A DNA stretch of 34,800 nt, from positions 1 to 34,800 of the forward strand of contig JANXRK010000045.1 in assembly GCA_025353045.1 (NCBI GenBank), given 5' to 3'. A program made the position numbers and the translations under genes. The notes below the pieces were generated by a model. The model saw only the letters and a program-made list of their open reading frames with translations. It made no database searches and was not told where the DNA came from. This DNA is from Candidatus Tayloriibacteriota bacterium. Lineage in GTDB: Bacteria > Patescibacteriota > Minisyncoccia > Phycocordibacterales > PALSA-1337. Positions 1,410-33,765 of the stretch are shown piece after piece (the first letter of the stretch is position 1; each line of letters begins with the position of its first letter).

Positions 1410-3974
1410 TCAATAACTAGTATAAGGAAGTGGGGTACCTGAATTATAAAGTGTTGACCGTTCAGACGTTCCTAGTGCTCGTGACCATATAGATAGCTGG
1501 TCCATATGAGCATCTATAGTATACCCTGCATAGAAGCCGTAGTCTGGTTCAAAATAATGTCCGAGAGAAAGATTCTGTGATGGATACGTTGAGACGGTTC
1601 CAGTATATGTAACTGAACTCACGACTCCATTGTCGATTTGAATATTTATTTGTTTTGAAGAAGCTACATGCCAAGCTACGATACGATGCCAACCTGTATC
1701 TGGACTGACATTTGCGCTATGAACAGTCTGATATGACGAACCTGTCCAGACAGAGAAATCATAGCGCAGTGGTATACCATAATTATCTCCCCATAAATAC
1801 CAGTTCCTTGGTTTTGTAACGAGATAGTAAGGATTAAAATTTAGCGAATCAAACTTAACCCATGTTTGTACACTAAAGTCTCCACTCAAATCAAAAGCTG
1901 TATCAGTAGATCCCACTTGAGTCCCAAAAGGTCCAGCTGCATATCCAGATGGAGAACTGGCAGCGGCCACAGACCCTGACAAAACTTTTGATGCATATGA
2001 GCCAACTCTATCAATAGCAGTTGTCTCATTCATTTCCCAAACCTCAATAAGGTTATCAGTGAGAAGTGGCGCTGTGACTGTGATACTTGTACTCTGAGTA
2101 GTAGTTTGACTATATCCAGTTACACGTAAAGTAAAGTTGGTTGTTCCTATGCCTGTTGGTGTACCTGTGATTGCTCCTGTTAAATAATTTAAAGTTAATC
2201 CAGATGGTAGAGAACCTGAAGAAATATCCCAAGTAAATGGACCTGTACCTGACGCAGTCGGAGTAAATGAATATGATACACCAAGTGTCGCCGCCGTTGG
2301 TGCTGAACTGGTAATCGTTGGAGTAGCATCTGTTACTCTGATAGCTCCACTTCTAAACCATGTATCAGCTAAAAGTGTATAACCTCTTTGTGTTGGATGG
2401 ACGTTATCCGTATTGAAAAAAGATGAAGGTGAGCCATCTGTAAGGTTTGCAGCTACCATTGCTGAATAATGATCAGCTAAGAAAATTCTCTTACCCGCAG
2501 CACGACGACTGATTATTTGAGCTTTTATAAAGTTATTGTATGTCTGCATTGTAGCATCACTGATAGTCTGCCCTGCTGGGAATTTTGGATAAGTACCGAT
2601 CACGTAAACAGCATCTGGATATATTGCCATTATTTCATCGAGGCCACTTGAAAAATATGTTTCTGTATCAGCCTCACTAGCACCGTAACCAATATCATTA
2701 ACTCCAGCAAGAAGATAGATCATATCAGTTGGAAATTCAGAAGTAGTAGATGCGCCACTTGAACCTGTTATAAAATCTTCAAAAGAATAAGACCCACCAG
2801 CCACCCTCCAACCAGCACCGGGCGCAGAAAAACTATGGTCATCCAAAGGTGCAGAAGGACCATTTCCAGAAAAATTAGTATGTGGCATCCATCCGACCGG
2901 TTGGTATTTACCCGAAAGATCTCCGTAATTAATATAATCATTTTGTAAATATCGACGATACCCTCCTTGACCAGAAGAACCAGCATCAGATCCCCACGTT
3001 ATACTATCTCCAAAGAACATAACCTTGAGTGGGTTACTTGCACTATATTGGGATGGAATTATCGATATACTATTTTCAGGCATATAAACACTTAGACTCA
3101 AAGAAGATAAACCTGTTGTAGTTGCTGTATTTGTAAGTGCCAATGTACTCAATCCATAATTAATAGATGTTATAGAAAATGTCTTAGTGCCACCTGCACT
3201 TTCTAGATTATCGATGATACCTGAATAAGTAAAAGTTCTAGATTTTGATGCTGGAATTGCAAAATAACCTAAAAGAGTTTTCTCCGAGGAATCACCACTC
3301 ACCGATATAGGAAAAGTGCTGACGCCGGAAAGTGGGAGACTTGATGAAGCCAGAAGTCCAGAACTGGATGTTGCAAGCGCCAGTGCTGGATTGGAAGAAA
3401 TAAATATATCCTTACTCCCAGCGGTCAGGGTAAATGAATAGCTAACATGGTATGCAGTGGTCGTTGCGTATTTATTTATAGCCGATCCGAGAGTCGCAGA
3501 AAGATTACTTATTATTGGATCACTGTTTTCGTCTGTAGCATCAGTTCTATGGTGATTTACTAAGTCAGTATTTTGATGAATAATACTAGACAGTATTGGT
3601 GACAATCTTTCAGATTGAGAATGATGAATAATACTAGACAGTATTGGTGACAATCTTTCAGATTGAGACTTTTGAGCTATTTTTGAATTTAATAAGTTAC
3701 GAGTCAGAGGACCAAAAAATCCTGTATTTGGAAGATTTACGGTCTTTTGATATTTAGAAACTGCACCCATAGTCAAATAACCAAAATACCCTTTTGCAAT
3801 ACCTTTTGGAATTACTAAAAAATTATTTTCAACCAACCAATCCTGCAATTGCGCAACATTTTTGCCGGATGAACCAAGTTTTAGACTATTGGAAAAAGAG
3901 TATGCATAAACAGTATTGAAAGTAGCACTAAGGATAAGCAGTGAGACTGCAGTTAAGTATATAGTTTTAGACAT
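1410..3974 (-). CDS. Large secreted multidomain protein: signal peptide, peptidoglycan-binding-like segment, 16-aa tandem repeat, SGNH/GDSL hydrolase, Ig-like segment, C-terminal LamG/concanavalin-like region
   Basis: 854 aa with a hydrophobic N-terminus (LTAVSLLILSATFNTVYA). PG_binding_1-like stretch GKNVAQLQDWL...YFGYLTMGAVSKYQK. GDSL block VMFFGDSITWG and a late DNVHPT block. FTWDISSGSLPSGLTLNYLTGAITGTPT resembles putative-Ig repeats. The C-terminal lectin-like call is inference. Confidence 0.8.
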   Translation of the reverse strand: MSKTIYLTAVSLLILSATFNTVYAYSFSNSLKLGSSGKNVAQLQDWLVENNFLVIPKGIAKGYFGYLTMGAVSKYQKTVNLPNTGFFGPLTRNLLNSKIAQKSQSERLSPILSSIIHHSQSERLSPILSSIIHQNTDLVNHHRTDATDENSDPIISNLSATLGSAINKYATTTAYHVSYSFTLTAGSKDIFISSNPALALATSSSGLLASSSLPLSGVSTFPISVSGDSSEKTLLGYFAIPASKSRTFTYSGIIDNLESAGGTKTFSITSINYGLSTLALTNTATTTGLSSLSLSVYMPENSISIIPSQYSASNPLKVMFFGDSITWGSDAGSSGQGGYRRYLQNDYINYGDLSGKYQPVGWMPHTNFSGNGPSAPLDDHSFSAPGAGWRVAGGSYSFEDFITGSSGASTTSEFPTDMIYLLAGVNDIGYGASEADTETYFSSGLDEIMAIYPDAVYVIGTYPKFPAGQTISDATMQTYNNFIKAQIISRRAAGKRIFLADHYSAMVAANLTDGSPSSFFNTDNVHPTQRGYTLLADTWFRSGAIRVTDATPTITSSAPTAATLGVSYSFTPTASGTGPFTWDISSGSLPSGLTLNYLTGAITGTPTGIGTTNFTLRVTGYSQTTTQSTSITVTAPLLTDNLIEVWEMNETTAIDRVGSYASKVLSGSVAAASSPSGYAAGPFGTQVGSTDTAFDLSGDFSVQTWVKFDSLNFNPYYLVTKPRNWYLWGDNYGIPLRYDFSVWTGSSYQTVHSANVSPDTGWHRIVAWHVASSKQINIQIDNGVVSSVTYTGTVSTYPSQNLSLGHYFEPDYGFYAGYTIDAHMDQLSIWSRALGTSERSTLYNSGTPLPYTSY
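3574..3668. repeat. Perfect tandem duplication with a 48-bp period inside the 854-aa CDS
   Basis: 3574-3620 and 3622-3668 are identical 47-mers (tgatgaataatactagacagtattggtgacaatctttcagattgaga). They encode QSERLSPILSSIIH twice, in frame. Confidence 0.95.
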
Positions 3975-4832: not shown

Positions 4833-5009
4833 TTTACTATGGATAGCCTCAATTGTGTAGTGGATTGAATCCTTGCTATAATATATCTGATTGTTTCAAG
4901 TGTTGACGACCGGCTGTACTCACATCTTAATTTAGACATTATATTTGGAGCTAACACCCGTTCGTCAACATTCGGTGCAATCACCTTTCAAACATGATAT
5001 AACTATGCC

Positions 5010-6029
5010 ATGTCAATCCAAAAAGATATCCTCCTCAAAGATCTAACGACTTTTCGCATTGGTGGGCCAGCCAAGCATTTTTGTGTTGTTCGAAATGAAG
5101 ATGAATTAATCGAAGCAGTTAATTTTTCAAAAAAATATAGAGTTCCCTTTTTTGTTCTGGGTGGGGGCTCAAATATTCTCGTAGCCGATGAAGGCTTTGA
5201 AGGAATCGTTATTAAGATGGAAATGAAAGGTGTTACATATAAAGAAGAAGGTACGGATGTTTTCGTGACTGCCTCAGCTGGTGAAAACTGGGATAGTTTT
5301 GTTAGTCAAATTGTCGAGAAAGGTCTTTATGGTTTAGAAAACCTTTCATATATTCCTGGAACAGTCGGTGCTGCTCCAGTCCAAAATATTGGCGCATATG
5401 GAAGTGAATTAAAAGATACGGTTATATCAGTACACGTTCTTGATGTCGTTAAAGACGAATATAAAGATCTTTCAAATACCGAATGCAAGTTTTCATATAG
5501 AGATAGTATTTTTAAAGAAGATCCAAAAAAATATATCGTACTTTCAGTTACTTTTAGACTAAGCAATCGAGGGACATTAAATATTGGTTACAAAGACGTT
5601 CAAGAATATTTTGATTTTAAAAAGATAAAGGAACCAACTCTCAAGCAAGTTCGAAATGCCGTTATCGAGATCCGCCAAAGAAAACTTCCTGATGTAAAAG
5701 AATATGGAACTGCTGGTTCGTTTTTCAAAAACGTCATTGTGCCAAATGCTCAAGCTCAAGCCCTTTTGAAAAAGTATCCTGAAATGATTTTACACAAAGT
5801 AAATGATAAAAAAGTAAAGATTCCTATCGCTTGGATTCTCGATCATGTTTGCGGTTTTAGAGGAGTGAAAAAAGGAAATGTTGGAACTTTTCGAAATCAG
5901 GCTTTAGTCCTCATAAATCATGGTGGAGCGACTGCGGCAGAGATTATTGCCCTAGCCCAAAAGATGGTTGATGAAGTATACGATAAAACAGGAATTGAGA
6001 TTGAACCAGAGGTAGAATATGTGCTATGA
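5010..6029 (+). CDS. murB: UDP-N-acetylenolpyruvoylglucosamine reductase
   Basis: 339 aa. N-terminal LKDLTTFRIGGPA and FVLGGGSNIL FAD-binding motifs. TATAAC lies 6 nt upstream of the ATG. Confidence 0.9.
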   Translation: MSIQKDILLKDLTTFRIGGPAKHFCVVRNEDELIEAVNFSKKYRVPFFVLGGGSNILVADEGFEGIVIKMEMKGVTYKEEGTDVFVTASAGENWDSFVSQIVEKGLYGLENLSYIPGTVGAAPVQNIGAYGSELKDTVISVHVLDVVKDEYKDLSNTECKFSYRDSIFKEDPKKYIVLSVTFRLSNRGTLNIGYKDVQEYFDFKKIKEPTLKQVRNAVIEIRQRKLPDVKEYGTAGSFFKNVIVPNAQAQALLKKYPEMILHKVNDKKVKIPIAWILDHVCGFRGVKKGNVGTFRNQALVLINHGGATAAEIIALAQKMVDEVYDKTGIEIEPEVEYVL

Positions 6030-12137: not shown

Positions 12138-13031
12138 CTAAAGTGCACGCTCGGCGGCGATGAAATCATCGAGGTCTCCTTCAAGTACTTTGTCCACCTG
12201 GCTCGTCTCAACATCTGTCCTATGATCTTTAACCATTTTATATGGATGAAAAACATATGATCGTATCTGATTTCCCCACTCTATAGAAGTAGTCTTACTA
12301 ATATACATTCCCTTTTCTCGAGCAACTCTTTCCTCTTCCATTTGTTTAAAAAGTTTACCTTTCAAAATATCCAAAGCTTTTTCTTTATTTTGTGCTTGAG
12401 AACGCTCAGATGTTACATGAACAGAAAGTCCTGTCGGCCTATGAATGATGCGCACAGCCGTTTCTCTTTTATTTACATTCTGACCTCCAGGGCCGCCAGA
12501 TTTTGCAATGGAAATATCGAGATCTTTATCTTCCAAAACAAGATCTGCACTATTTGTCTTTTCAAATTTAGGAATAATTTCAACCATTGAAAAAGAAGTA
12601 TGCCGCAGTTGTTTAGAATTGAACGGAGAAATTCTTACAAGACGATGCACACCACTTTCATTTTTTAAAGTTCCATAGACATCTTTTCCACTTATTTCAA
12701 CTGTAATGTTTCGATAGCCGCCATGATCGTTTGTATTTTCATGAATAAGTTCCATTCCCCAACCTTTATTCTCAGATAATTTTCTATACATACGATAAAG
12801 GATTGCTGAAAAATCCTCAGCATCGTCACCTCCTGCTCCAGAAAAAATCGTCAATATGGCATTACCCTTATCGAATTTACCTATACCAACCAAAGCATCT
12901 TTGAGATCCTGAAGCTCTTTAATCATGCCCTGAGCTTTTTGAGGATTAGACCAAAATTCAGCATCGGCTATAGCTGTCTCTATCTCTGATATTCTTACTT
13001 TGGTCTTTTCTATATTATTTTTTACTATCAT
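12138..13031 (-). CDS. prfB: Peptide chain release factor 2, short form
   Basis: 297 aa. Contains the SPF tripeptide (RISPFNSK) and GGQ (SGGPGGQNVNK). Only about 60 residues precede the FSGAGGDDAEDF block. It is a single uninterrupted frame. Confidence 0.9.
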   Translation of the reverse strand: MIVKNNIEKTKVRISEIETAIADAEFWSNPQKAQGMIKELQDLKDALVGIGKFDKGNAILTIFSGAGGDDAEDFSAILYRMYRKLSENKGWGMELIHENTNDHGGYRNITVEISGKDVYGTLKNESGVHRLVRISPFNSKQLRHTSFSMVEIIPKFEKTNSADLVLEDKDLDISIAKSGGPGGQNVNKRETAVRIIHRPTGLSVHVTSERSQAQNKEKALDILKGKLFKQMEEERVAREKGMYISKTTSIEWGNQIRSYVFHPYKMVKDHRTDVETSQVDKVLEGDLDDFIAAERAL

Positions 13032-13589: not shown

Positions 13590-13665
13590 TGGAGCCAAAG
13601 GTGAGAATCGGACTCACGACCTACGCTTTACGAAAGCGTTGCTCTACCAACTGAGCTACTTTGGC
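13590..13665 (-). tRNA. tRNA-Thr (anticodon CGU), CCA encoded
   Basis: Minus strand: GCCAAAG-TA-GCTC-AGTTGGTA-GAGC-A-ACGCT-TTCGTAA-AGCGT-AGGTC-GTGAG-TCCGATT-CTCAC-CTTTGGC-T-CCA. The T loop reads TCC rather than TTC. Confidence 0.85.
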
Positions 13666-13671
13666 TTAGGG

Positions 13672-13744
13672 AGCCGTTGTCCGGGATTGAACCGGAGACC
13701 TCGTCATTACCAATGACGTGCTCTACCAACTGAGCTACAACGGC
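13672..13744 (-). tRNA. tRNA-Thr (anticodon GGU)
   Basis: Minus strand: GCCGTTG-TA-GCTC-AGTTGGTA-GAGC-A-CGTCA-TTGGTAA-TGACG-AGGTC-TCCGG-TTCAATC-CCGGA-CAACGGC-T. No CCA is encoded. Confidence 0.9.
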
Positions 13745-13845
13745 AAACATTTTAACACTGACTAAGAATAGTCTATTTACTAAATGTTTTCAATAATTAG
13801 TACATATATAAGCCACTATTGAAGTCTTACAAATAATTTACTTTG

Positions 13846-13919
13846 CGCGATCGGCGGGACTCGAACCCGTAACCTCCCACGTGACAGGCGGGTGCTCTAA
13901 CCAGTTGAGCTACGATCGC
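13846..13919 (-). tRNA. tRNA-Asp (anticodon GUC)
   Basis: Minus strand: GCGATCG-TA-GCTC-AACTGGTTA-GAGC-A-CCCGC-CTGTCAC-GTGGG-AGGTT-ACGGG-TTCGAGT-CCCGC-CGATCGC-G. Confidence 0.88.
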
Positions 13920-13977
13920 AATGACTCTAAATGTATCAAAAATAAGCAAAAACGCAAGAAAATGATAGACCCAATTG

Positions 13978-14048
13978 TGTCGGTGAATGGAATCGGACCA
14001 TTGTCTGAGGCTTATGAGTCCTCCGTTCTACCATTGAACTACACCGAC
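13978..14048 (-). tRNA. tRNA with CAU anticodon, elongator-type (Met, or Ile2 if lysidine-modified)
   Basis: Minus strand: GTCGGTG-TA-GTTC-AATGGTA-GAAC-G-GAGGA-CTCATAA-GCCTC-AGAC-AATGG-TCCGATT-CCATT-CACCGAC-A. G1:C72 is paired and U11:A24 is present. The T loop is TCC, and there is an A31/G39 mismatch. Confidence 0.8.
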
Positions 14049-14059
14049 ATATATCCTTG

Positions 14060-14131
14060 TTGCGGAGGTCGGAATCGAACCGACAATCTTCAGGTTATGA
14101 GCCTGACGAGCTACCGTTGCTCTACCCCGCT
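14060..14131 (-). tRNA. tRNA-Met (CAU), probable initiator
   Basis: Minus strand: AGCGGGG-TA-GAGC-AACGGTA-GCTC-G-TCAGG-CTCATAA-CCTGA-AGATT-GTCGG-TTCGATT-CCGAC-CTCCGCA-A. Positions 1:72 are unpaired (A/A) and A11:U24 is present, as in bacterial initiators. Overall it resembles E. coli tRNA-fMet. Confidence 0.85.
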
Positions 14132-24589: not shown

Positions 24590-25261
24590 TTACTTTACAG
24601 ACACAATAACTACTAATTCTCCTTTTTGTTTTTCAGGAATTTCAGTCATTATTTTTAATATTTCCTCGGCACTCCCCTGCAAAACTTCTTCATAAATTTT
24701 TGTAATTTCTCGAACAATAGTTATTTTTTTGTCGATTTTTTTCAGCGACTCTAGAGTTTTCAAAATTCTATGCGTTGATTCATAAAAAACAATTGTTCTT
24801 TCTGATTTTGCAATCTCTTTGAAGAGAGTTTCTCTACCCTTTTTGTGTGGCATAAAACCAAGAAAAATAAATTCGTGTGTTGGCACTCCAGAAATAGAAA
24901 GTGCAGAAGTTAAAGCTGAAGGACCGGGTACAGCTTCTATTTTTAAATCAGGATATTTTTCTCGAATGATAGAAATGAGCAAGGAACCTGGATCAGAGAT
25001 CCCTGGGGTTCCAGCGTCGGTAACGAGAGCAATATCTTTTCCCTTTTCAATTTTTTCTAAAATAAGTTCGACTTTTGTCTCTCCACTTTGGGCATGATAA
25101 CTCAACATCTGAGTAGAAACTCCATATTTTTCAAAAATTCTTTTTGTAACTCGAGTATCTTCGCAGAGGACGATATCGACTTCTTTAAGAATACGAAGGG
25201 CTCGAAGAGTTATATCTTCGAGGTTCCCAATTGGAGTAGCGATAACATAAAAAGTAGACAT
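24590..25261 (-). CDS. rsmI: 16S rRNA (cytidine1402-2'-O)-methyltransferase
   Basis: 223 aa. IATPIGNLEDITLRALRILKEVDIVLCEDTR and the overall tetrapyrrole-methylase-like pattern. Confidence 0.9.
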   Translation of the reverse strand: MSTFYVIATPIGNLEDITLRALRILKEVDIVLCEDTRVTKRIFEKYGVSTQMLSYHAQSGETKVELILEKIEKGKDIALVTDAGTPGISDPGSLLISIIREKYPDLKIEAVPGPSALTSALSISGVPTHEFIFLGFMPHKKGRETLFKEIAKSERTIVFYESTHRILKTLESLKKIDKKITIVREITKIYEEVLQGSAEEILKIMTEIPEKQKGELVVIVSVK

Positions 25262-25288
25262 TACGATATAATATACTACACTATCTAT

Positions 25289-26464
25289 ATGGCAAGCATT
25301 CTCTACATCACACGAGATATCGAACGAACTTTAGGGAAAACCCCTGGAGAAGATTACTACGTTGTGACAAATAAAACTCCTTACGCTGAAGAAGTCCAAA
25401 AATGTTATCCTGACTTTGTATTTCTCGTGGAATCAGAAAAAATTCTTAGTACGCTTGAACTTCTTCAACATTCTCAAGTACGAGAAATTATTGAAGAATA
25501 CAAATTTCCAATTGTTGTTTTCAAAAATAATCTTCAGATCGAAGAATTATGCAAAGATAAAGGTTGGCTACTTCTAAATCCAAGCGCTGAGCTTGCGGAG
25601 AAAGTAGAAAATAAAATTACTCAAGTAGATTGGCTTGGTGAATTAGAAAATCTCTTGCCACCACACGAAATCAAAATAACAAAAGACATTGTTTGGAATA
25701 AAAAAGCTTTTATTCTCCAATGGGCACATGGACACACAGGAAGCAGCACCGTTCTTGTCCAAAATGAAAAAGATTTGAAGGCTTTGCAAGAAAAGTTTCC
25801 ACAACGAGAAGCTCGTGTAACGGATTTTATAAAAGGACCAATGCTTACATCAAATATTGTGGTCACAAAACATGCGCTACTTCTTGGAAACATTAGTTAT
25901 CAAATTACTGGCATTTTACCTTTCACAGAGAATCCTTTGAGCACAATCGGAAATGATTGGAGTCTTCCCCATACTATTTTAAGTGAAGCGCAGTTAGGTC
26001 AATTTTCATCGATCGCGAAAAAAGTTGGTCAAAAAATGCAAGTTTCTGGTTGGAAAGGACTTTTTGGTATTGATGTTATCTATGACGAAGAAAGAAATCT
26101 TATGTATTTAATAGAAATAAATGCTCGCCAACCAGCAAGTACTTCGTATGAATCAATTCTTCAGGCGACATTTGATCTTAAAGGCCTGACGACATTCCAA
26201 GCGCACCTCGATGTTCTAAGTGAAACTACGATCGATTCATCTCTTATACAAATTAATGATGGCTCACAAATTCTTCAAAGAGTTACGTCTCAGATCAAAA
26301 AACTTTCAACAGCAAAACTAAAAAAAGCTGGGTATAAAGTTATTTCTTATGGAAATGAAAAGGTAAATGAAGATCTTCTACGAATCCAATCTTCACGAGG
26401 AATCATGGAGACCCACAATAAATTTAATTTGAGAGGAAAAGATATTTTGGAATTGCTTGAATAA
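25289..26464 (+). CDS. ATP-grasp family enzyme of unknown substrate
   Basis: The tracked ORF starts at 25088, but that part is antisense to rsmI. The ATG at 25289 (MASILYITRD) gives 391 aa. The ATP-grasp C-terminal core is GWKGLFGIDVIYDEERNLMYLIEINARQPAS, preceded by ILQWAHGHTGSSTVLV. Confidence 0.7.
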   Translation: MASILYITRDIERTLGKTPGEDYYVVTNKTPYAEEVQKCYPDFVFLVESEKILSTLELLQHSQVREIIEEYKFPIVVFKNNLQIEELCKDKGWLLLNPSAELAEKVENKITQVDWLGELENLLPPHEIKITKDIVWNKKAFILQWAHGHTGSSTVLVQNEKDLKALQEKFPQREARVTDFIKGPMLTSNIVVTKHALLLGNISYQITGILPFTENPLSTIGNDWSLPHTILSEAQLGQFSSIAKKVGQKMQVSGWKGLFGIDVIYDEERNLMYLIEINARQPASTSYESILQATFDLKGLTTFQAHLDVLSETTIDSSLIQINDGSQILQRVTSQIKKLSTAKLKKAGYKVISYGNEKVNEDLLRIQSSRGIMETHNKFNLRGKDILELLE

Positions 26465-26531
26465 GACTGAATCATAGATATTTTTTTCACTCTACACTTT
26501 CACTTCTTGTTTTTGCATCATTTTAAAAATA

Positions 26532-26598
26532 TGCGACTGAGTTGCATTTAAATTTTATTTCACCTATAGAAACTTTTTCTAGATGCGATTCAGTCGCA
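26532..26598. repeat. Two copies of a 15-bp palindromic motif TGCGA-N5-TCGCA, 52 bp apart, in a convergent intergenic region
   Basis: tgcgactgagttgca (26532-46) and tgcgattcagtcgca (26584-98) are mutual inverted repeats matching at 13 of 15 positions. A third half-site, gactgaatc, lies at 26465-73. Confidence 0.6.
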
Positions 26599-26625
26599 CT
26601 TATAATAATCTGAGGAATTTCGGAA

Positions 26626-27057
26626 CTAGTCAGGCATCATGACAATATATCCTTTATTTTGGTCTGGAACAATATTATCAAAATATCTTTTAAATAACCT
26701 TATTCGGGACATCTCTCTCCTTGTTCTATCCTCTTCTGGCGCATCTCCATAATATGGATAAAACCAAAATTTATTGATTCTTGCATCTCTCATGGCAACT
26801 TTTATACATTCTACAACATAATTCATGTCAGCATCATCAATTTTTATCTCGGGTTGGTCCGTACTTGCTAAACCATTCTCAACCTTCGTTCCGAACAAAA
26901 CTTCTGGCAGATCTTTATAATTTTTTCCAGTTGTATCTATCCCTATTTCAACATTTTTAAAATCATATTTAATAACATCATCCCGAACTTCAATTCTCTG
27001 AAATGGTAGCTCTTGAATTTCATGATTTTCTAATTTGTTGATTGATGATTCATTCAT
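26626..27057 (-). CDS. Hypothetical cytoplasmic 143-aa protein, partner of the upstream Cys-His protein
   Basis: No signal peptide and no recognised motif. It lies 6 nt downstream of the 247-aa gene. Confidence 0.6.
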   Translation of the reverse strand: MNESSINKLENHEIQELPFQRIEVRDDVIKYDFKNVEIGIDTTGKNYKDLPEVLFGTKVENGLASTDQPEIKIDDADMNYVVECIKVAMRDARINKFWFYPYYGDAPEEDRTRREMSRIRLFKRYFDNIVPDQNKGYIVMMPD

Positions 27058-27063
27058 AAAGTA

Positions 27064-27807
27064 TTAATTAAACCAATTTAGTCTTCGAAGTTCTGTCACT
27101 GATTTCTTTGCTCGCATATGAGTATAGTTTTCTTCTCCTTCTTTTTCCAATTCGATCCATCTTTGCTCAACAAGAGATTTTCCATTATCAATTATTTCTA
27201 TTTTCCCCTTATGAATTCCATGTCCAAATTCTCCATCAGTCGGCCATGCGACAGCGTGCGTATAATGCAAAGTTTTTGGTACAGCGTTTTCAAAATCAAT
27301 CTTATACACAACAAGAATATGATCTCTTTCAGTATTTGAAACCATCGTGATGATATCACCCGCTTGAACAGCCTTTACCTGAATCACTTTAGAATTTAAA
27401 TCATGAGCAAATGTTTTTACATCAGTATTTTCAATCGGTCGCAATTTTGCTCGAATAGAACCGATAATTCCTGAACTAAAAGGAAAACGTAAATATTTAT
27501 CAAGATTTCCTTTTCTACGACTGTTACTTTCCTCATTCAAAACATAATAGACAAAACCAGAGCATTCAATTCCAATATCATTTTCAACCATGAACTTTTT
27601 AAGATCTTTTGGATTAAAAGATCTTAAATCTCTCTTTTGTAAAATGGCTTTATGTTCAACCTCTTCGAAAATTTCTTTGTGACTACCTTTGCCGATTTCA
27701 ACCTTTAAACCAGCTCTTCGGCCAGTGGTTTTATTATTGAAATAAGGCACATCTTTATAAGCCTCTATAACCCTCAAAGCGGCTTCAGATAGGACTTGTG
27801 TGTTCAT
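27064..27807 (-). CDS. Cytoplasmic NlpC/P60-like (papain-fold) Cys-His protein
   Basis: 247 aa with no signal peptide. The motif order IECSGFVYYVL ... AGDIITMVSNTERDHILVVY ... HYTHAV matches the Cys / GD-x-His / polar triad layout of NlpC/P60 enzymes. This is inference from motifs only. Confidence 0.55.
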   Translation of the reverse strand: MNTQVLSEAALRVIEAYKDVPYFNNKTTGRRAGLKVEIGKGSHKEIFEEVEHKAILQKRDLRSFNPKDLKKFMVENDIGIECSGFVYYVLNEESNSRRKGNLDKYLRFPFSSGIIGSIRAKLRPIENTDVKTFAHDLNSKVIQVKAVQAGDIITMVSNTERDHILVVYKIDFENAVPKTLHYTHAVAWPTDGEFGHGIHKGKIEIIDNGKSLVEQRWIELEKEGEENYTHMRAKKSVTELRRLNWFN

Positions 27808-27852
27808 ACAATAAGATTAACATATAAGCCATTTTATGCTAATCTAAGGCCT

Positions 27853-28980
27853 ATGATCAGCATATTAGAAGGGACGGCAGATTTGGCTAGTATACTGGGT
27901 TTTGCCCTCCTAGCCTGCGTTGTGGCCTTCGTATGGTCACCTATTTTGATATGGTTCCTCTATCGCTTCAATATCGTCAAAAGTAAAAAAATAGAGCTCG
28001 AAAATATTGAATCTCAAAAAGGTAAAGAAAAAGCTCCAGTTATGGGTGGACTTTTAGTTATCATAACTGTTGCGGTCTTAACCTACTTTTTTAATTGGCA
28101 TAGAAATTATACCTGGGTACCTGTTGGCGTCATGCTTCTTTCTGCACTTCTCGGTGCTGTTGATGATCTTTTAAACGTCTTTGGTGTTGAGAGACGTTCT
28201 CGAAAACTTAAACAAATCTTTACATTGATAAGAGTCCATAAAAATTTAAAAATGCGTTTGTGGTATGCCATAACGTTGCCTTGGTCAATGTTTAAAAGAA
28301 CTTCAGTGTGGATTGGTTCAAGAACTAGTAAAGGAATCCACGTTCACGAAAAACTCCTTCTCCAATTCGCTGCTGGTTCCATAACTGCCTGGTGGATCTA
28401 TGATAAGCTCGGAACTGCCTGGCATTATATTTATTTACCATTTGATATTGATATTTATGCAGGCTGGCTCATCATTCCTTTGATTATTCTTATTGTGATG
28501 TTTACCGCAAACGCTGTAAACATTGCTGACGGTATGGATGGTCTGGCTGGAGGAATGCTTATCTCATCTTTTAGTGCTTTAATTATTTTAAGTTGGATAA
28601 ATGGATTTTCTGAGATCGCCATTTTAAACGCCGTAACTGTTGGAGCATTGGTGACCTATACGTATTTCAATATTAAACCTGCCCGCTTTATGATGGGTGA
28701 TGTGGGATCACTTGGACTTGGTGCTCTATTTGCAGTAAATACTATTGCCATCGGTGAGATCGGTTCAATCTTTTTCCTTGGATTCGTTTTTTATATCGAA
28801 GCATTAAGTGTTGTGATCCAAATCGCTGGACGATATACTCTTGGCCGAAGAATTTTCCGCATGGCTCCTCTTCACCACCATTTTGAATTAAAAGGTTGGA
28901 GTGAAGAAAAAACTATTATGCGTTTCTGGATTATTCACTTTATTTTTGTTGTTTTCGGAGTTTGGTTGGCTTTGCATTAA
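27853..28980 (+). CDS. mraY: Phospho-N-acetylmuramoyl-pentapeptide transferase
   Basis: The tracked ORF uses a TTG at 27796. The ATG at 27853 (MISILEGTADLASILGF) is more plausible. Motifs PVMGGLLVI, NAVNIADGMDGLAGG, GDVGSLGLGA, APLHHHFELKGWSE. Confidence 0.9.
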   Translation: MISILEGTADLASILGFALLACVVAFVWSPILIWFLYRFNIVKSKKIELENIESQKGKEKAPVMGGLLVIITVAVLTYFFNWHRNYTWVPVGVMLLSALLGAVDDLLNVFGVERRSRKLKQIFTLIRVHKNLKMRLWYAITLPWSMFKRTSVWIGSRTSKGIHVHEKLLLQFAAGSITAWWIYDKLGTAWHYIYLPFDIDIYAGWLIIPLIILIVMFTANAVNIADGMDGLAGGMLISSFSALIILSWINGFSEIAILNAVTVGALVTYTYFNIKPARFMMGDVGSLGLGALFAVNTIAIGEIGSIFFLGFVFYIEALSVVIQIAGRYTLGRRIFRMAPLHHHFELKGWSEEKTIMRFWIIHFIFVVFGVWLALH

Positions 28981-28989
28981 TTTTTATCT

Positions 28990-29628
28990 ATGGAATATTT
29001 GCATTGGAAAGAAGAGAGAATGACTGACGATTCAGCTGAAAGTATTTGCCGTATGTATGACAATGGTTTTGTTTTTACTCGTTTGGATAAAGGAATGATG
29101 CATCAAACAAGATCAGTGCGTATTGATTTAAGTAAATTCGAAATCTCAAGTGAAAATCGGCGTATCATGCGTAAAGGTGAAGAAATTATGATGGATAAGC
29201 ATACTATTCCTTTTATGAAATACGATTGGAATATTGGAAAATTAGCCAAAGATTTTTATGATAAAAAAGCTGGTGGAGCTTTTAGTGCAAATAAAATAAA
29301 AGAGCTTATCACTACTCCGCACAACTTCAATAATCTTTTTTCTTTTTCAAATCTTGGTTTTGCAATCTGTTACGAAAATTCTCATATGCTTCACTATTGC
29401 TATCCTTTTTATGATTTAGAAAAAAGTGTTAAAGATATGGGATTGATTATGATGACTAAAAGTATTGCGAAGGCACAAATGGAAGGTAAAAAATATGTAT
29501 ATGTGGGTTCACTACAAAGACCGACTGACACTTACAAGCTCCAGTTTTCTGGGATAGAATGGTTTGATGAGAAAGGGTGGAGTGATGACATAGAAAAAGT
29601 TAAAATAATTCTTAATGAAGGAAAATAA
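28990..29628 (+). CDS. Aminoacyl-tRNA-protein-transferase (ATE/Bpt)-like protein
   Basis: 212 aa. NGFVFTRLDKGMMHQTRSVRIDLSKFEISSENRRIMRK and the C-terminal GKKYVYVGSLQRPTDTYKLQFSGIEWFDEKGW align by eye with the Bpt/arginyltransferase core (NGFRRSG..., ...LSRSQKRLL..., WLYLGYQI...MNYKVRF...). The N-terminal Cys cluster is absent. It lies 9 nt after mraY and overlaps the next gene by 14 nt. Confidence 0.65.
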   Translation: MEYLHWKEERMTDDSAESICRMYDNGFVFTRLDKGMMHQTRSVRIDLSKFEISSENRRIMRKGEEIMMDKHTIPFMKYDWNIGKLAKDFYDKKAGGAFSANKIKELITTPHNFNNLFSFSNLGFAICYENSHMLHYCYPFYDLEKSVKDMGLIMMTKSIAKAQMEGKKYVYVGSLQRPTDTYKLQFSGIEWFDEKGWSDDIEKVKIILNEGK

Positions 29629-31012
29629 TAAACATATTCATATTGTAGGGATTTGTGGCGTAGGAACTGGCGCTTTAGCTATTGCCCTACACCAAGCTGG
29701 ATATAAAGTAACCGGTTCTGACAAAGGTTTCTTCCCTCCTGTTTCAGATGAATTGAAAGATGCTGGTGTGAATTTCCATGCAGGCTGGCATCCTGAAAAT
29801 TTTGAGACCTTAGGAATTCCTGAAATTTTCGTAGCTGGTGGCGGAGGGACAGCAAGTACCAATCCTGAACTGATCTGGGCAAAAGAAAAAAATATTCCAA
29901 TTATTACTTTCGCTGAGGCTGTCGGAAAGTTTATCACAAAAAAGAATTCAATCGTCTGTACGGGAACGTGGGGTAAAAGTACTTCCACCGCCCTTCTCTC
30001 GCATATTTTTGAATATGCAAAAATGGATCCGAGTTATTTTATTGGTGCAGTTCCGCTTGGAATGAAAGCTGGTAAATTAACTTCAACCAATATAAGTATT
30101 GTCGAAGGTGATGAATATCAAGCCGCTATTTTTGACAAGCGTGCAAAGTTTTTATTTCATAATCCCTCTCATCTTCTTCTTACTGCGGTTTCTTGGGATC
30201 ATGCTGATCTATATCCAACAATTGAAGACTATTTAAATGCTTTTAGAAAACTGATTACGCTTCCAACTCTTACGACCATTGCCGCTTGTGCTGATAATGA
30301 AAATGTAAAAAATATTTTAAAAGAAACACAAAAAAATGTGGTGTGGTATGGAAGTTCAGAAAAAGCAGACGCACGATATGAAAAAATAGACATGGATCAA
30401 GATGGAATTACTTTTGATATTTCTTTTAAAGGAGAAACATATAAAATTAAAAGTCACCTTTTAGGAACATATAATGCGGAAAATATTACAGGATGCTTTT
30501 TAATGGCTGCTCAATTTAATATTCCGATTGAAAAAATAATTGAAGGAATTGCTTCATTCAAAGGAATGCGACGAAGAATCGAGAAGCGATTGGATGGAGA
30601 TATAAAAGTAATTAGTGATATCGCTCATTCACCCGCTAAAGTCCAGGTCGTCCTTGAAACCCTGCGAAAAGTTACGAAAGGTAAAATCTTGGCTGTTTTT
30701 GAACCAAATATTGGAGCACGAGAAAAGTCCACATTACATTACTATGATAATGCTTTTAAAGATGCAGATATGGTCGTAATTCCAAAACTTTCGAGTCTAA
30801 AGATAGAAGAAGGGAAAGAAGTTACCGCGGTAGATGGACAAGGACTCTATGAAGCCATTTCAAAAACACACATTAATGCAAAATATATTGAGGATGATCT
30901 CCAATTAGTCACACTCCTTTCAACCACAGCAAAAAAAGGTGACGCTATTGTCTTCCTAGGATCTCACGGTTTCCGTGGGATGATTGAGGAAATCATCAAG
31001 AAACTTTCTTAA
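29615..31012 (+). CDS. mpl: Mur ligase of the MurC/Mpl family, closer to Mpl (UDP-MurNAc:peptide ligase)
   Basis: 465 aa. IHIVGICGVGTGALA, FFPPVS, P-loop GTWGKSTST, and EGDEYQAAIFDKRAKFLFH plus WDHADLY, which match the E. coli Mpl blocks EADEYDCAFFDKRSKFVHY and FDHADIF rather than the MurC blocks EADESD and EADHMD. Confidence 0.75.
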   Translation: MKENNKHIHIVGICGVGTGALAIALHQAGYKVTGSDKGFFPPVSDELKDAGVNFHAGWHPENFETLGIPEIFVAGGGGTASTNPELIWAKEKNIPIITFAEAVGKFITKKNSIVCTGTWGKSTSTALLSHIFEYAKMDPSYFIGAVPLGMKAGKLTSTNISIVEGDEYQAAIFDKRAKFLFHNPSHLLLTAVSWDHADLYPTIEDYLNAFRKLITLPTLTTIAACADNENVKNILKETQKNVVWYGSSEKADARYEKIDMDQDGITFDISFKGETYKIKSHLLGTYNAENITGCFLMAAQFNIPIEKIIEGIASFKGMRRRIEKRLDGDIKVISDIAHSPAKVQVVLETLRKVTKGKILAVFEPNIGAREKSTLHYYDNAFKDADMVVIPKLSSLKIEEGKEVTAVDGQGLYEAISKTHINAKYIEDDLQLVTLLSTTAKKGDAIVFLGSHGFRGMIEEIIKKLS

Positions 31013-31015
31013 TAA

Positions 31016-31180
31016 TTACTTCCCTTCGTCAACGATCTGAGTTGTAACTGAGTCTCCTTCAATCTTTTTTACAAGCAAAGTAATTCCGCAATGATTACAC
31101 TCAATAATCATTCCTTCTTTAATTGATGGATACCTTGAAAGGTCTAATTCATTCTTACATTCTGGGCAAATTGCTTTCAT
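31016..31180 (-). CDS. Untracked 54-aa LysW-like zinc-ribbon protein
   Basis: Hand translation: MKAICPECKNELDLSRYPSIKEGMIIECNHCGITLLVKKIEGDSVTTQIVDEGK*. CPEC...CNHC spacing and the following beta-hairpin resemble the LysW/ArgW amino-group carrier proteins. TAATAT ends 6 nt before the ATG. Confidence 0.5.
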   Translation of the reverse strand: MKAICPECKNELDLSRYPSIKEGMIIECNHCGITLLVKKIEGDSVTTQIVDEGK

Positions 31181-31238
31181 ATTTTGATATTATTTGTCAA
31201 TACTTCTAATACTACCCAAAAGGTTGTAATATATCAAG

Positions 31239-32114
31239 ATGATCACACGCCAGGAACCTGTACCAGAATTAGCAAAAGCCTTAGAGATGATATCTCTATA
31301 CTATAAAAGAGAGGATTTGCACCCTTATGGTTCACATAAGGGGCGATCTCTTCCGATCATGATTGATACTTATATAAAAGATGGTGTAGACCATTTTGCT
31401 GTTTCTTCTTCCGGAAATGCCGCCCTCGCTTCGGCTTTTTACATAGAAAAATTGAATAAAGATAAATCTTTAGATATCAAACTCGACATCTTAGTTGGTC
31501 AACACATTACAACAAAAAAACTTAGAAAATTAGAGCAGTTTAAAAGTGAATATATAAAGATCACAAGCCACGACCGCCCTCTTCAGACACTTTTTGCAAT
31601 AACAAAGGATTCTACTATCAAACCACTGCGACAATCAAACGACGATACTGCGCTTTTAGGTTACGATGCATTAGCAAAAGAGCTTTTGGAGATTAAAGAT
31701 CTTCAAGCGGTTTTTATAGGCACGTCTTCTGGAACAACAGCTCAAGCATTGGCACAATACTTCAAATCACAAGATAAAAAAATAGAAATTCATATCGTTC
31801 AAACATCATCATGCCATCATATTTCAGATAATTTCGTAAATGATCAACTCATTGAAGAACAATCGATCGCTGATGCTATTGTCGATCAGACAGCATTAAG
31901 AAAAGACATCGTTTTCAAATTACTTAAAGAAAACGATGGGGGTGGGTGGATCGTCTCAAATGAACAGATACGAGCAGCTCAGGAATTGAGTAAAAAGCAT
32001 GCGAAAATCGATGTCTCCACAAACAGTGCCCTCTCTTTGGCCGGCCTTATGCAAGCAGTGTATACCGGCAAAAGTTGGTCTGGTTCAGTTGTCTGTATGA
32101 TTTGTGGGGACTAA
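31239..32114 (+). CDS. Fold-type-II (Trp-synthase-beta-like) PLP-dependent enzyme, specificity unknown
   Basis: 291 aa. KREDLHPYGSHKGRS (putative PLP lysine), AVSSSGNAALASA, and a phosphate-loop variant IGTSSGTTAQAL. Confidence 0.7.
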   Translation: MITRQEPVPELAKALEMISLYYKREDLHPYGSHKGRSLPIMIDTYIKDGVDHFAVSSSGNAALASAFYIEKLNKDKSLDIKLDILVGQHITTKKLRKLEQFKSEYIKITSHDRPLQTLFAITKDSTIKPLRQSNDDTALLGYDALAKELLEIKDLQAVFIGTSSGTTAQALAQYFKSQDKKIEIHIVQTSSCHHISDNFVNDQLIEEQSIADAIVDQTALRKDIVFKLLKENDGGGWIVSNEQIRAAQELSKKHAKIDVSTNSALSLAGLMQAVYTGKSWSGSVVCMICGD

Positions 32115-32127
32115 AGATTGGGCTATT

Positions 32128-33426
32128 TTAGAGACTTCTAACTGCTTTCACAAATCTCTCCCCTCTTTCTTTTCTAGAAATATCAATTCCCACCGCATCA
32201 AAAGCTGGACTAAATAAGACCTTATCACCCTTCTTTGCATTTTCATATGCTAATTTAACGGCCTCTTCTAGAGTTAATGTTTGAATAAGATTAATATTTT
32301 CTAGTGCCTCAATATGAGGACGAATTCCTAAAGTTCCACTTCCTGGTAGAAGGATTACAGTCGATACATACTGTGGAATATCTTTTATAAGTTCTTGGTA
32401 GTCATAACCAGTATAAGCACCACCCAAAATGAGGATAGTATTTTTTCCTGAAGACAATGAACGAAGAGCAGATAATGTGGCTTTTGGAGTGATCGAACTT
32501 GCATCATTATAGAATTCAATAGCTGAGACTTTTTTAATAAATTCAATACTTCCTCTCAAACCAAGAAATCCCTGTATGACCTCTTTTGTAAATTCTTTTG
32601 GAACTTTAAATAGTTCGACAGTCTGAAGGACGAGTACAGCGTTATCTCTATCATGAGACATTTTGGTTGAGAGATTCCAATCTACAGGAATTTGATTACT
32701 TCGAGTTCTTAACATTTTTGCTTTTGAAGGAAAGTTTTTCTCTTTGCTAATCGCATCAATAACCTCATCAGTGGAAACTATAAAATTGTTATAGGTCTGG
32801 TATTCTAGAATATCAAGATCAATTTGTGAAGTGATGACTGCTACATGAGGACTGATATGAATTTCATAATAGTACGGTATGAGTCGGTCAGGGATTCTAG
32901 CCAAAACAACATCATCTTTTTTAATTTTCTTTAGGTGAGTCAGTGCTCCATTTGTAGAATCAGGGTCAATAAAGAAAAGTCCTTGATCTTTATACCCTGA
33001 AAAAGCCTTTTTAAGAATTGTGTATATCATGTGAGCAACTGAACTCTTTCCATACAATCCCAAAACTCCAATCAAAGTTATAGGCGGAGAAAGTTTAAAG
33101 AAAAGTGTATCTGGAAATTCGATCTGTATCTCAGCTTGTATGGCTTTTTTAAGAAATAGTGATTTCTTGGATATCTCGGGTGAAATAATAATTAGGTCAA
33201 AATTAATCAATTCTTCCTCAGGAACTTTCCCAAATGTATACATTTCTAAACCAACATCTTTTAATTCAGGAATAAAAACCTTGAGACGCTTTTCACTTCT
33301 CATATCATAAAGAGAAACATTAGCCTTATTTCTCAATAGAAACTTGATATCTGCCATCATTTCACCATGAGGCCCTAGGCCTATAATAGCCACTTTTTTA
33401 GCGTTAAAAAATTCTTTATAGTTCAC
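32128..33426 (-). CDS. murD: MurD-like Mur ligase with divergent motifs, GTG start
   Basis: 432 aa. N-terminal KKVAIIGLGPHGEMMADIKFL...VSLYD, a P-loop-like VLGLYGKSS, and a C-terminal VLFSPAFDAVGIDISRKERGERF typical of MurD. Confidence 0.7.
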   Translation of the reverse strand: MNYKEFFNAKKVAIIGLGPHGEMMADIKFLLRNKANVSLYDMRSEKRLKVFIPELKDVGLEMYTFGKVPEEELINFDLIIISPEISKKSLFLKKAIQAEIQIEFPDTLFFKLSPPITLIGVLGLYGKSSVAHMIYTILKKAFSGYKDQGLFFIDPDSTNGALTHLKKIKKDDVVLARIPDRLIPYYYEIHISPHVAVITSQIDLDILEYQTYNNFIVSTDEVIDAISKEKNFPSKAKMLRTRSNQIPVDWNLSTKMSHDRDNAVLVLQTVELFKVPKEFTKEVIQGFLGLRGSIEFIKKVSAIEFYNDASSITPKATLSALRSLSSGKNTILILGGAYTGYDYQELIKDIPQYVSTVILLPGSGTLGIRPHIEALENINLIQTLTLEEAVKLAYENAKKGDKVLFSPAFDAVGIDISRKERGERFVKAVRSL

Positions 33427-33447
33427 AGGTACACATTATACCAAATA

Positions 33448-33765
33448 TCAATCTCCATCAACTTCTTCACCACCAGTACCCTCAATTAGTCTTTTAACCT
33501 TAATGAGCTCTTGTAGCAGGGCTTGCATTTTCATAGCTTCCTCATCATTTGTATGCTCAAACATAGCAAAAGAAGAGAGTTTCCTTAAGAATAGATTATA
33601 AATGTCATTGAAATATTTTTCTAAAACACTGACGCTATCTTCTGAATTTAATCCTTGATCTCTAACAGTAAACATTTCTGAAGGACGATAGATTCCCTCA
33701 AAATACAGATGGTCATCAGAAAGCACACCATCCAAAGATGGAGAAGTTATTGTATATGTTTTCAT
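33448..33765 (-). CDS. Hypothetical 105-aa acidic protein
   Basis: No recognised motif, acidic C-terminal tail (GGEEVDGD). It sits between radC and the murD-like gene on the same strand. Confidence 0.55.
   Translation of the reverse strand: MKTYTITSPSLDGVLSDDHLYFEGIYRPSEMFTVRDQGLNSEDSVSVLEKYFNDIYNLFLRKLSSFAMFEHTNDEEAMKMQALLQELIKVKRLIEGTGGEEVDGD

Follow-up and report, generated by a model that had tools for sequence, protein, structure and literature searches.

A gene in the 34,800-nucleotide stretch of Candidatus Tayloriibacteriota DNA analysed here (contig JANXRK010000045.1 of assembly GCA_025353045.1; hereafter the window) encodes a small relative of the aminoacyl-tRNA transferases ATE1 and Bpt, and its homologues are found among peptidoglycan precursor genes in two phyla. 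The gene lies on the forward strand, from an ATG at 28990 to a stop at 29628, and its 212-aa product has the homology and fold of the ATE/Bpt lineage, keeps the catalytic residues, has lost the Cys site and belongs to a conserved operon. Judging by gene context and conserved residues only, we propose that the protein acts in the manner of FemX, taking an amino acid from charged tRNA and passing it to a soluble peptidoglycan precursor that offers a free amine, a reading to which we would give a probability of about 0.5.

Patescibacteria are ultra-small bacteria that make up a large share of bacterial diversity, are mostly uncultured and lead an episymbiotic, surface-dependent life. To our knowledge, every tRNA-dependent enzyme of peptidoglycan synthesis is a FemABX protein, and the only activity known for ATE/Bpt enzymes is the modification of protein N-termini. 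What is new here is an ATE/Bpt clade that has lost the Cys site, keeps a conserved place among cell-wall genes and probably acts on an acceptor other than protein; its conserved placement inside operons for peptidoglycan synthesis suggests an undescribed tRNA-dependent step in patescibacterial cell-wall building. A first-pass annotation of the window, made from the sequence alone, had supposed that such a role had not been described for this family, and we likewise found no such paper. No literature linking ATE/Bpt proteins to peptidoglycan, Patescibacteria or Verrucomicrobia was found in a search of incomplete coverage, which amounts to absence of evidence.

Homology and fold

The window protein is almost certainly homologous, though only distantly, to Bpt of bacteria and ATE1 of eukaryotes; the first-pass annotation had likewise placed it with them. 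Seven NCBIfam Bpt ('arginyltransferase') models match residues ~40-199 with E values from 7.7e-10 to 1e-7, the best score of 38.4 bits lying far below the equivalog cut-offs of 170-358 bits. For profile-profile comparison with hhalign, three canonical Bpt proteins from alphaproteobacterial replicons, including that of S. meliloti, served as the reference; the close relatives of the window protein matched them at 96.1% probability (E 3e-9) and a 55-member alignment of the whole clade at 99.1% (E 8.5e-19, 190 columns). An AlphaFold2 model built on 30 homologues (predicted local distance difference test score 90.7, predicted template modelling score 0.88) was compared with the PDB by Foldseek. 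ATE1 of human, yeast and Kluyveromyces took rank 1 and most of the 50 matches listed (E 1.6e-7; template modelling (TM) score 0.55-0.69, normalised to the query), followed by aminoacyl-phosphatidylglycerol (aa-PG) synthases, FemX(Wv) and Sba18; Aat was absent from these 50 matches.

Pfam bore this out only in part. The ATE_C family matched the window protein below threshold (19.4 bits against a gathering score of 25) and ATE_N, FemAB and Leu_Phe_trans (PF03588) gave no match at E <= 1, while six more distant family members passed the ATE_C gathering score with 27-41 bits. Sequence searches of the PDB, both with the single sequence and with a close-family profile, returned no match. The case for homology relies on NCBIfam, hhalign and the fold comparison because a wide-family profile retrieved ATE1 only at E 0.56.

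The Cys-less clade is small and separate. Near the window protein there are 1348 clusters at 90% identity, nearly all of ~210 aa, and the few named matches, together with the 39 related genome loci, are from Patescibacteria. A hidden Markov model search of 1.84 billion representatives gave 373 clusters (50% identity) at E <= 1e-3, and the clade profile does not reach the canonical Bpt family, which is much larger, at E 1e-3. A second set of 2673 clusters, mostly from Verrucomicrobiae metagenome-assembled genomes, was obtained around a high-GC member. Members are annotated inconsistently, many as 'arginyl-tRNA--protein-N-Asp/Glu arginylyltransferase' by JGI and as 'hypothetical protein' by NCBI.

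In one metagenomic protein of 809 aa (P0248; locus L123, 8001-10430), residues 1-220 are an ATE-like domain, fused to PPDK_N and PEP-utilizer swivel domains. The protein forms a singleton cluster, and its contig, of 57 kb, carries a Mur ligase gene 4.4 kb upstream of it; no second fusion of this type occurs in the best 120 of 571 relatives listed. The fusion was considered as a Rosetta-stone clue to a non-tRNA donor and was given little weight, being a singleton with a distant Mur ligase neighbour.

Conserved and lost residues

The motif blocks named in the first-pass annotation are all present, with one correction of spacing. The first, NGFVFTR (aa 25-31; 29062..29082, + strand), lies opposite the GGFRRSQ / YRP region at the end of the Bpt ATE_N domain, and its G26 is invariant across the family. 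The second, R41-S-x-R44 ... F50 ... S53-S-E-N-R57-R58-I-M-R-K62 (29110..29175, +), is a strand followed by a basic helix and is aligned by hhalign with 'SVRI...F..TRSMRRVL' of Bpt; in the family alignments R44 and R58 are invariant and S-E-N near-invariant. Five residues separate R44 from F50, not four as had been written, and the resulting pattern R44-x5-F50-x2-S53-x3-R57R58 has the spacing of canonical Bpt (R73-x5-F79-x2-T82 in S. meliloti Bpt). The helix spans aa 54-62 in the AlphaFold2 model (S53-SENRRIMRK62). In ATE1 the alpha3 helix is basic, essential and tRNA-binding, and it is conserved in aminoacyl-tRNA transferases and absent from other GNATs (PMC9351520). By our mapping, the SENRRIxRK helix would sit at the place of alpha3 and presumably corresponds to it at the residue level.

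Further along, H135-Y-C-Y-P-F-Y-D142 (29392..29415, +) is the conserved GNAT core strand, which reads 'SMVYSFFDP' in Bpt. The C-terminal signature consists of Y169-V-Y-V-G173 followed by Y182-K183-L-Q-F186, in which the YLG strand and the Tyr-Lys pair (Y169-V-Y-V-G-S ... Y182-K183; 29494..29538, +) are aligned with ATE1, the pair with Y303/K304. Y182-K183 is also aligned to yeast ATE1 'YYYLGYY...NYK' and to Y229 K230 of Bpt, and is invariant in 55 diverse members. Lys304 of klAte1 is the catalytic Lys and the counterpart of FemX K305, and the K304A variant is inactive (PMC9351520). The same 55 members, whose mean identity is 26%, keep the Gly of the GF motif, R-S-x-R, S-E-N-R-R, the H-Y-x-Y/F core strand, the xLG loop, YLG, the Tyr-Lys pair and a C-terminal Trp.

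The absence of an N-terminal Cys cluster, also noted at first pass, is confirmed. Cys occurs in the window protein only at positions 20, 127 and 137, so that there is no CxxC cluster, and neither the four ATE_N Cys of canonical Bpt (C19, C63, C66 and C69 in S. meliloti Bpt) nor its N-terminal ~35 residues have a counterpart. The Arg pair of the GFRRSQ motif of Bpt and ATE1 is unaligned in the window family. Counterparts of the donor-pocket residues, assigned by spacing, are M154, S158 (variable, small) and V170. These residues hint at a donor pocket nearer to the hydrophobic pocket of Bpt than to the Ser/Glu/Tyr pocket of ATE1, and perhaps at a small or hydrophobic donor amino acid instead of Arg.

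Gene context in related genomes

In the window, mraY ends at 28980, 9 nt before the ATE-like gene, and the open reading frame of the Mur ligase starts at 29615, overlapping the ATE-like gene by 14 nt, which agrees with the layout first described. The three genes had been called co-translated; they are better described as co-transcribed and probably translationally coupled, with 0.4-3 kb of unrelated DNA standing before murC in several relatives. One gene call in the databases starts the ATE-like protein at M11 (202 aa); the M1 start is preferred because the residues MEYLHWKEE are kept in homologues.

Context was compared in 39 genome loci and 80 metagenome loci, the latter from a metagenome scan with a 10-sequence alignment, and neighbours were labelled by phmmer, Pfam and NCBIfam. 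Group 1 is the window's own group, its members being 53-79% identical and found in Paceibacteria-type genomes. The gene order is ATP-grasp / NlpC-like / MraY / ATE-like / MurC-like / PALP / MurD-like, with the MraY / ATE-like / MurC arrangement in 39 such genomes; MraY is upstream in 37 of the 38 informative loci and a MurC-like ligase downstream in 33 of 34. In each of the 39 close relatives, genes for the ATP-grasp, PALP (a pyridoxal phosphate (PLP) enzyme family) and NlpC/P60-like proteins accompany the trio of mraY, ATE-like gene and murC, and PALP and ATP-grasp genes also adjoin MraY in a distant group (L115 10139-12380; also L089 10446-11555). The products of these three neighbours might provide or attach an uncommon amino acid, possibly of the D form.

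Group 2 comprises other low-GC Patescibacteria, ~31% identical to group 1. Here MurE is upstream in 34 of 38 loci (TIGR01085, 409 bits) and a MurC-like ligase downstream in 28 of 33. In locus L049 the genes for MraZ, RsmH, a penicillin-binding protein, MurE, the ATE-like protein, MurC, MurB, MurA, MurF and MraY follow one another in this order on one strand, with a 4-nt overlap between murE and the ATE-like gene, which is therefore an internal gene of the division and cell wall (dcw) operon. A third set, of very low GC content, has MurA-...-MurE followed by the ATE-like gene. Group 3 comprises Verrucomicrobiae proteins ~27% identical to group 1, with an alanine racemase (Alr) gene immediately upstream in 15 of the 26 informative loci, often overlapping or only a few nt off.

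Our main argument for a functional link to the cell wall is that cell-wall neighbours persist with different partners at ~30% identity and in two phyla. A link to peptidoglycan precursor metabolism is, in our judgement, reasonably probable. The first-pass annotation had named unlinked loci in close relatives as evidence against its proposal, and the linkage proved to be conserved. The single canonical bpt locus inspected, that of S. meliloti, reads hemB / RDD / bpt / DMT and has no cell-wall neighbours.

Several loci have features of their own. The MurE beside the ATE-like gene in group 2 (L049 4787-6004) is short, at ~405 aa, with the model matched from about position 89; it has A-E-D-P-R where the diaminopimelate-adding MurE has D-N-P-R, and the Arg that is kept is not diagnostic of the acceptor residue. 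Loci L087 and L089 have two MurE paralogues (2436-3923 and 4739-6004) with an NlpC/P60-like gene on the opposite strand between them, and the second paralogue reads S-V-D-P-G. The MurC-like protein encoded after the ATE-like gene is ~700 aa long in L108 (6834-8927), L111 (385-2595) and L115 (6786-8873); the extra C-terminal ~250 aa had no Pfam match and are not a Ddl domain. Among the Verrucomicrobiae, the loci with Alr followed by the homologue include L078, L090, L091 and L113 (about 4500-6004), and in single loci an MR_MLE (Ala-Glu epimerase-like) gene or a tRNA dihydrouridine synthase gene adjoins the homologue (L078 6806-7849; L096 6809-7846).

Proposed function and alternatives

We propose that an aminoacyl-tRNA transferase of ATE/Bpt descent, soluble and with a single GNAT domain, was recruited into peptidoglycan precursor synthesis, where it would work like FemX or MurM. 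The basic SENRR helix would grip the acceptor end of the aminoacyl-tRNA, Tyr182 and Lys183 would then stabilise the tetrahedral intermediate, and the amino acid would finally pass to the free amine of a cytoplasmic precursor. The dependence on tRNA, the identities of acceptor and donor and the biological outcome are parts of this scheme that we infer. The acceptor must be an amine or a hydroxyl because aminoacyl-tRNA is an activated acyl donor. The likeliest acceptor would be the side-chain amine of residue 3, the residue added by MurE, in UDP-MurNAc-tri- or pentapeptide, where the transfer would start a branch or cross-bridge. That the gene comes immediately behind murE in group 2 agrees with an action on this residue. 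The small, soluble protein favours a nucleotide precursor as acceptor, as for FemX(Wv), over lipid II, and an N-terminal acceptor-side region unlike that of Bpt and ATE1, with the Cys lost and the Arg pair unaligned, fits a different acceptor.

More speculatively, the Arg retained in the A-E-D-P-R motif of MurE might hint at a carboxylate-bearing diamino acid, and a pocket whose ancestor bound N-terminal Asp/Glu could conceivably take an amine beside a carboxylate. The ATP-grasp and PLP enzymes conserved alongside may provide or attach an acidic D-amino acid, which would then be the acceptor. In its widest form, the proposal is that an enzyme of the ATE/Bpt fold, not the Fem fold, is a core component of the dcw operon in many Patescibacteria, occurring also in Verrucomicrobiae, and makes an aminoacyl-tRNA-dependent addition to the peptidoglycan stem peptide; we put this forward tentatively, at somewhat less than even odds. 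A role for the ATE-like enzyme as replacement of a Mur ligase was rejected, since elongation of the stem needs a carboxyl acceptor and aminoacyl-tRNA an amine acceptor; homologues of MurC, MurD, MurE and MurF are also present in the loci.

A number of observations count against a FemX-like transferase. The His at the CCA end of the tRNA (ATE1 H178, FemX H206, Bpt H120) is not conserved; in the hhalign alignments Ala94/Gly95 in the window group and Phe in other groups stand opposite Bpt H120, and the preceding Tyr (Y90, Bpt Y115) is kept. The protein is thus in the ATE/Bpt superfamily, yet fails two defining features of the characterised enzymes, the Cys site and this His. In the wide-profile search of the PDB mentioned above, the GNAT acetyltransferase 3d8p was the best match (E 1e-4), ahead of ATE1. 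Neighbours are unrelated to the cell wall (such as Dus, M3/S9 peptidases and ROK) in 11 of the 26 Verrucomicrobiae loci, and several group 1 genomes have inserts of 0.4-3 kb between the ATE-like gene and murC. No branch residue that needs explaining is known in the peptidoglycan of the carrier lineages.

The inserts (L001 6625-9655, L005 6625-9426, L011 6625-7498 and L006 4935-6000) lie on one or the other side of the ATE-like gene, separating it from murC or from mraY. Tight coupling to murC is not required, since these mobile-looking inserts split the pair in several close relatives. Judged from their first residues alone, the open reading frames within them are reverse-transcriptase-like, four-helix-bundle-like and toxin-antitoxin-pair-like, which suggests a mobile-insertion hotspot inside the operon.

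Three other explanations were weighed. That the nearest sequence family is Bpt and the nearest fold ATE1, with the catalytic Tyr-Lys pair kept, would also be expected of an ordinary N-degron Bpt, a leucyl- or arginyl-tRNA-protein transferase that puts a destabilising residue on protein N-termini, whose place among cell-wall genes would be an accident of compact genomes; the JGI arginylyltransferase labels on many members point the same way. We consider this unlikely. The window protein scores far under the cut-offs of the NCBIfam Bpt equivalogs (38 against 170-358 bits), it lacks the Cys site of ATE_N as well as the first ~35 residues of Bpt, members are left as hypothetical proteins by NCBI, and the small clade of 373 clusters has a profile that stops short of canonical Bpt. 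Chance is, moreover, hard to invoke for a cell-wall linkage that is seen again, with changing partners, among groups of 27-31% identity and across two phyla.

Unconserved tRNA-end His and the match to 3d8p, together with matches to Acetyltransf_6 and Acetyltransf_1 in some members, would suit a tRNA-independent GNAT acyltransferase that takes its acyl group from acyl-CoA or an acyl-phosphate and N-acylates a D-amino acid, a dipeptide or a peptidoglycan precursor. Such an enzyme could be linked to the racemases (Alr, PALP) and the ATP-grasp protein, and an Alr racemase or PLP enzyme and an ATP-grasp gene do recur as neighbours; the fusion to an ATP-dependent PPDK_N/PEP-utilizer module would also agree with it, but was seen once only. 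The acetyl-CoA pyrophosphate loop Q/R-x-x-G-x-G/A (motif A) is not present, however, the stretch reading V-K-D-M-G-L-I-M with a single Gly, like R-S-L-G-T of Bpt. The Tyr-Lys pair and the basic helix, hallmarks of aminoacyl-tRNA transferases, are invariant, and Bpt and ATE1 come first in the profile-profile and fold comparisons, so that we regard this acyltransferase as rather unlikely too. Quite improbable, in our view, is a tRNA-dependent transferase whose acceptor is not the nucleotide precursor but a lipid, either the hydroxyl or amine of a phospholipid, as for the MprF aa-PG synthases, or lipid I/II. The catalytic domains of the lysyl- and alanyl-phosphatidylglycerol synthases (L-PGS/A-PGS) are the second-best structural matches (E 1.7e-6) and MraY, the maker of lipid I, is encoded immediately upstream in the window group. 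The TM scores of the aa-PG synthases (0.40-0.47) are, however, below those of ATE1, the 212-aa protein has no membrane domain, no flippase fusion occurs in the family, and outside the window group the gene preceding the homologue encodes the cytoplasmic MurE or Alr rather than MraY.

If the FemX-like reading is true, ATE/Bpt chemistry extends to a non-protein acceptor and the aminoacyl-tRNA transferase superfamily would have been recruited into cell-wall synthesis a second, independent time. Branched or otherwise modified peptidoglycan would be predicted in Patescibacteria and soil Verrucomicrobiae, and the widespread automatic annotation as 'arginyltransferase' would be corrected. The finding would also bear on the origin of the eukaryotic arginylation enzyme, tying the ancestry of an N-degron enzyme to cell-wall chemistry, and the protein, being small, soluble and easy to express, would lend itself to a decisive assay.

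Comparison with known enzymes

Bpt (PF04376 ATE_N with PF04377 ATE_C; PRK01305 'arginyltransferase') is homologous to the window protein over ~190 columns, from the GGF motif to the C-terminus. The two share R-x5-F-x2-S/T-x-x-RR, an SMVYSF-type core strand, the xxLG loop, YLG and YK, and are of similar size with one GNAT domain. They differ in that identity is only 18-21%, the window protein is without the N-terminal ~35 residues and four Cys, the Y115/H120 pair is reduced to the Tyr in the window family, and the window clade lies inside cell-wall operons, unlike the single canonical bpt locus inspected. ATE1 (PDB 8tzv, 7tif, 7wg1, 8e3s) is the best structural match, with the catalytic Tyr-Lys aligned and a basic helix at the alpha3 position. 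At 11-13% identity, however, it is 2-2.5 times longer, has a C-terminal domain besides its Cys site for Zn or Fe-S, and puts Arg on protein N-terminal Asp, Glu or oxidised Cys, whereas the aligned donor-pocket residues in the window protein appear to be hydrophobic or small instead of Ser/Glu/Tyr.

The proposed functional analogues are FemXAB, MurM and FemX(Wv) (PF02388), which take the amino acid from aminoacyl-tRNA, pass it to an amine of a peptidoglycan precursor, have the GNAT fold and place the catalytic Lys behind an aromatic residue. FemX(Wv) is a significant fold match to the window model (Foldseek E 8e-6), with a TM score of only 0.45-0.47. FemABX proteins have two GNAT domains in 330-420 aa, whereas the window protein has one in 212 aa and no FemAB match. 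A trait of the FemABX type that the window family shares, as an association only, is the company of peptidoglycan precursor genes (MraY, MurE, MurC and Alr neighbours). In the examples known to us, Fem genes are not inside the dcw operon.

The aa-PG synthases (the C-terminal domain of MprF; PDB 4v36, 4v34, 5vrv) belong to the same superfamily of GNAT aminoacyl-tRNA transferases and are significant fold matches; they are fused to membrane domains and acylate a lipid hydroxyl, unlike the small, soluble window protein. Precedent for aminoacyl-tRNA transfer to small-molecule amines comes from the natural-product FemABX-like GNATs (PacB, VlmA, DhpH-C, Orf11/Sba18), of which Sba18 (9wqy) matches the fold of the window model at E 3.9e-5. 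The window gene differs from these in lying among primary cell-wall genes, not in a biosynthetic gene cluster. In a 2026 review, the known small-molecule GNAT aminoacyl-tRNA transferases within its scope are described as double-GNAT proteins of the FemX type (PMC12945691).

Other features of the window

The window has a G+C content of ~36% and typical patescibacterial housekeeping genes, i.e., murB, secA, pyrG, ftsEX, prfB, gatCA, ligA and genes for type IV pilins. Upstream of the ATE-like gene, mraY (phospho-MurNAc-pentapeptide transferase; 27796..28980, +) matches TIGR00445 at E 1e-52 as well as Pfam Glycos_transf_4. The TTG listed as its start is doubtful and would make it share 12 nt with the divergent gene upstream; the ATG at 27853 (MISILEG...) is more likely. 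The reading frame is long, at 394 aa against a 321-position model that it matches in two stretches, and the MraY protein seems to have an insertion in its N-terminal half.

The Mur ligase downstream (29615..31012, +), which the first-pass annotation had called Mpl-type, is better termed MurC-like within the MurC/Mpl clade, as TIGR01082 murC scores 261 bits and mpl 195 bits, each under the cut-off of its model. It is followed by a gene for a fold-type II PLP enzyme of the PALP family (31239..32114, +; threonine synthase / dehydratase / racemase-like), labelled from Pfam PALP (E 1.7e-33) and synteny, with weak NCBIfam matches to threonine synthase/dehydratase, and by a gene for a MurD-like Mur ligase (32128..33426, -; TIGR01087 murD E 1.9e-42, below cut-off; Pfam MurD-like_N and Mur_ligase_C). 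On the other side lies a gene for an uncharacterised ATP-grasp protein (25088..26464, +; Pfam ATP-grasp_3), whose position is kept in relatives. It was not Ddl-like in a PDB profile search, which gave weak PurK-type matches only, and a PDB sequence search for a Ddl or D-Asp ligase analogue returned no match. Between it and mraY, the weakly NlpC/P60-like protein (27064..27807, -) was labelled from a sub-threshold Pfam NLPC_P60 match (E 0.003) and synteny, and the orientation of its gene differs between relatives. A promoter and terminator scan of 26400-33600 found sites no more numerous than in shuffled sequence and has no bearing on the limits of the operon.

Five tRNA genes (Thr-CGT, Thr-GGT, Asp and two Met-CAT) are clustered at 13590..14131 (-), 15 kb from the ATE-like gene; as none of them adjoins it, there is no sign of a dedicated cell-wall tRNA. 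The release factor 2 reading frame at 12138..13031 (-) is only 297 aa long, with the PCRF domain matched from model position 81, which would fit either the usual programmed +1 frameshift or an N-terminal part encoded in a different frame. Finally, an 854-aa protein encoded at 1410..3974 (-) combines a peptidoglycan-binding domain, a GDSL lipase/acylhydrolase domain and a He_PIG Ig-like domain, and may be a secreted enzyme that acts on a host envelope.

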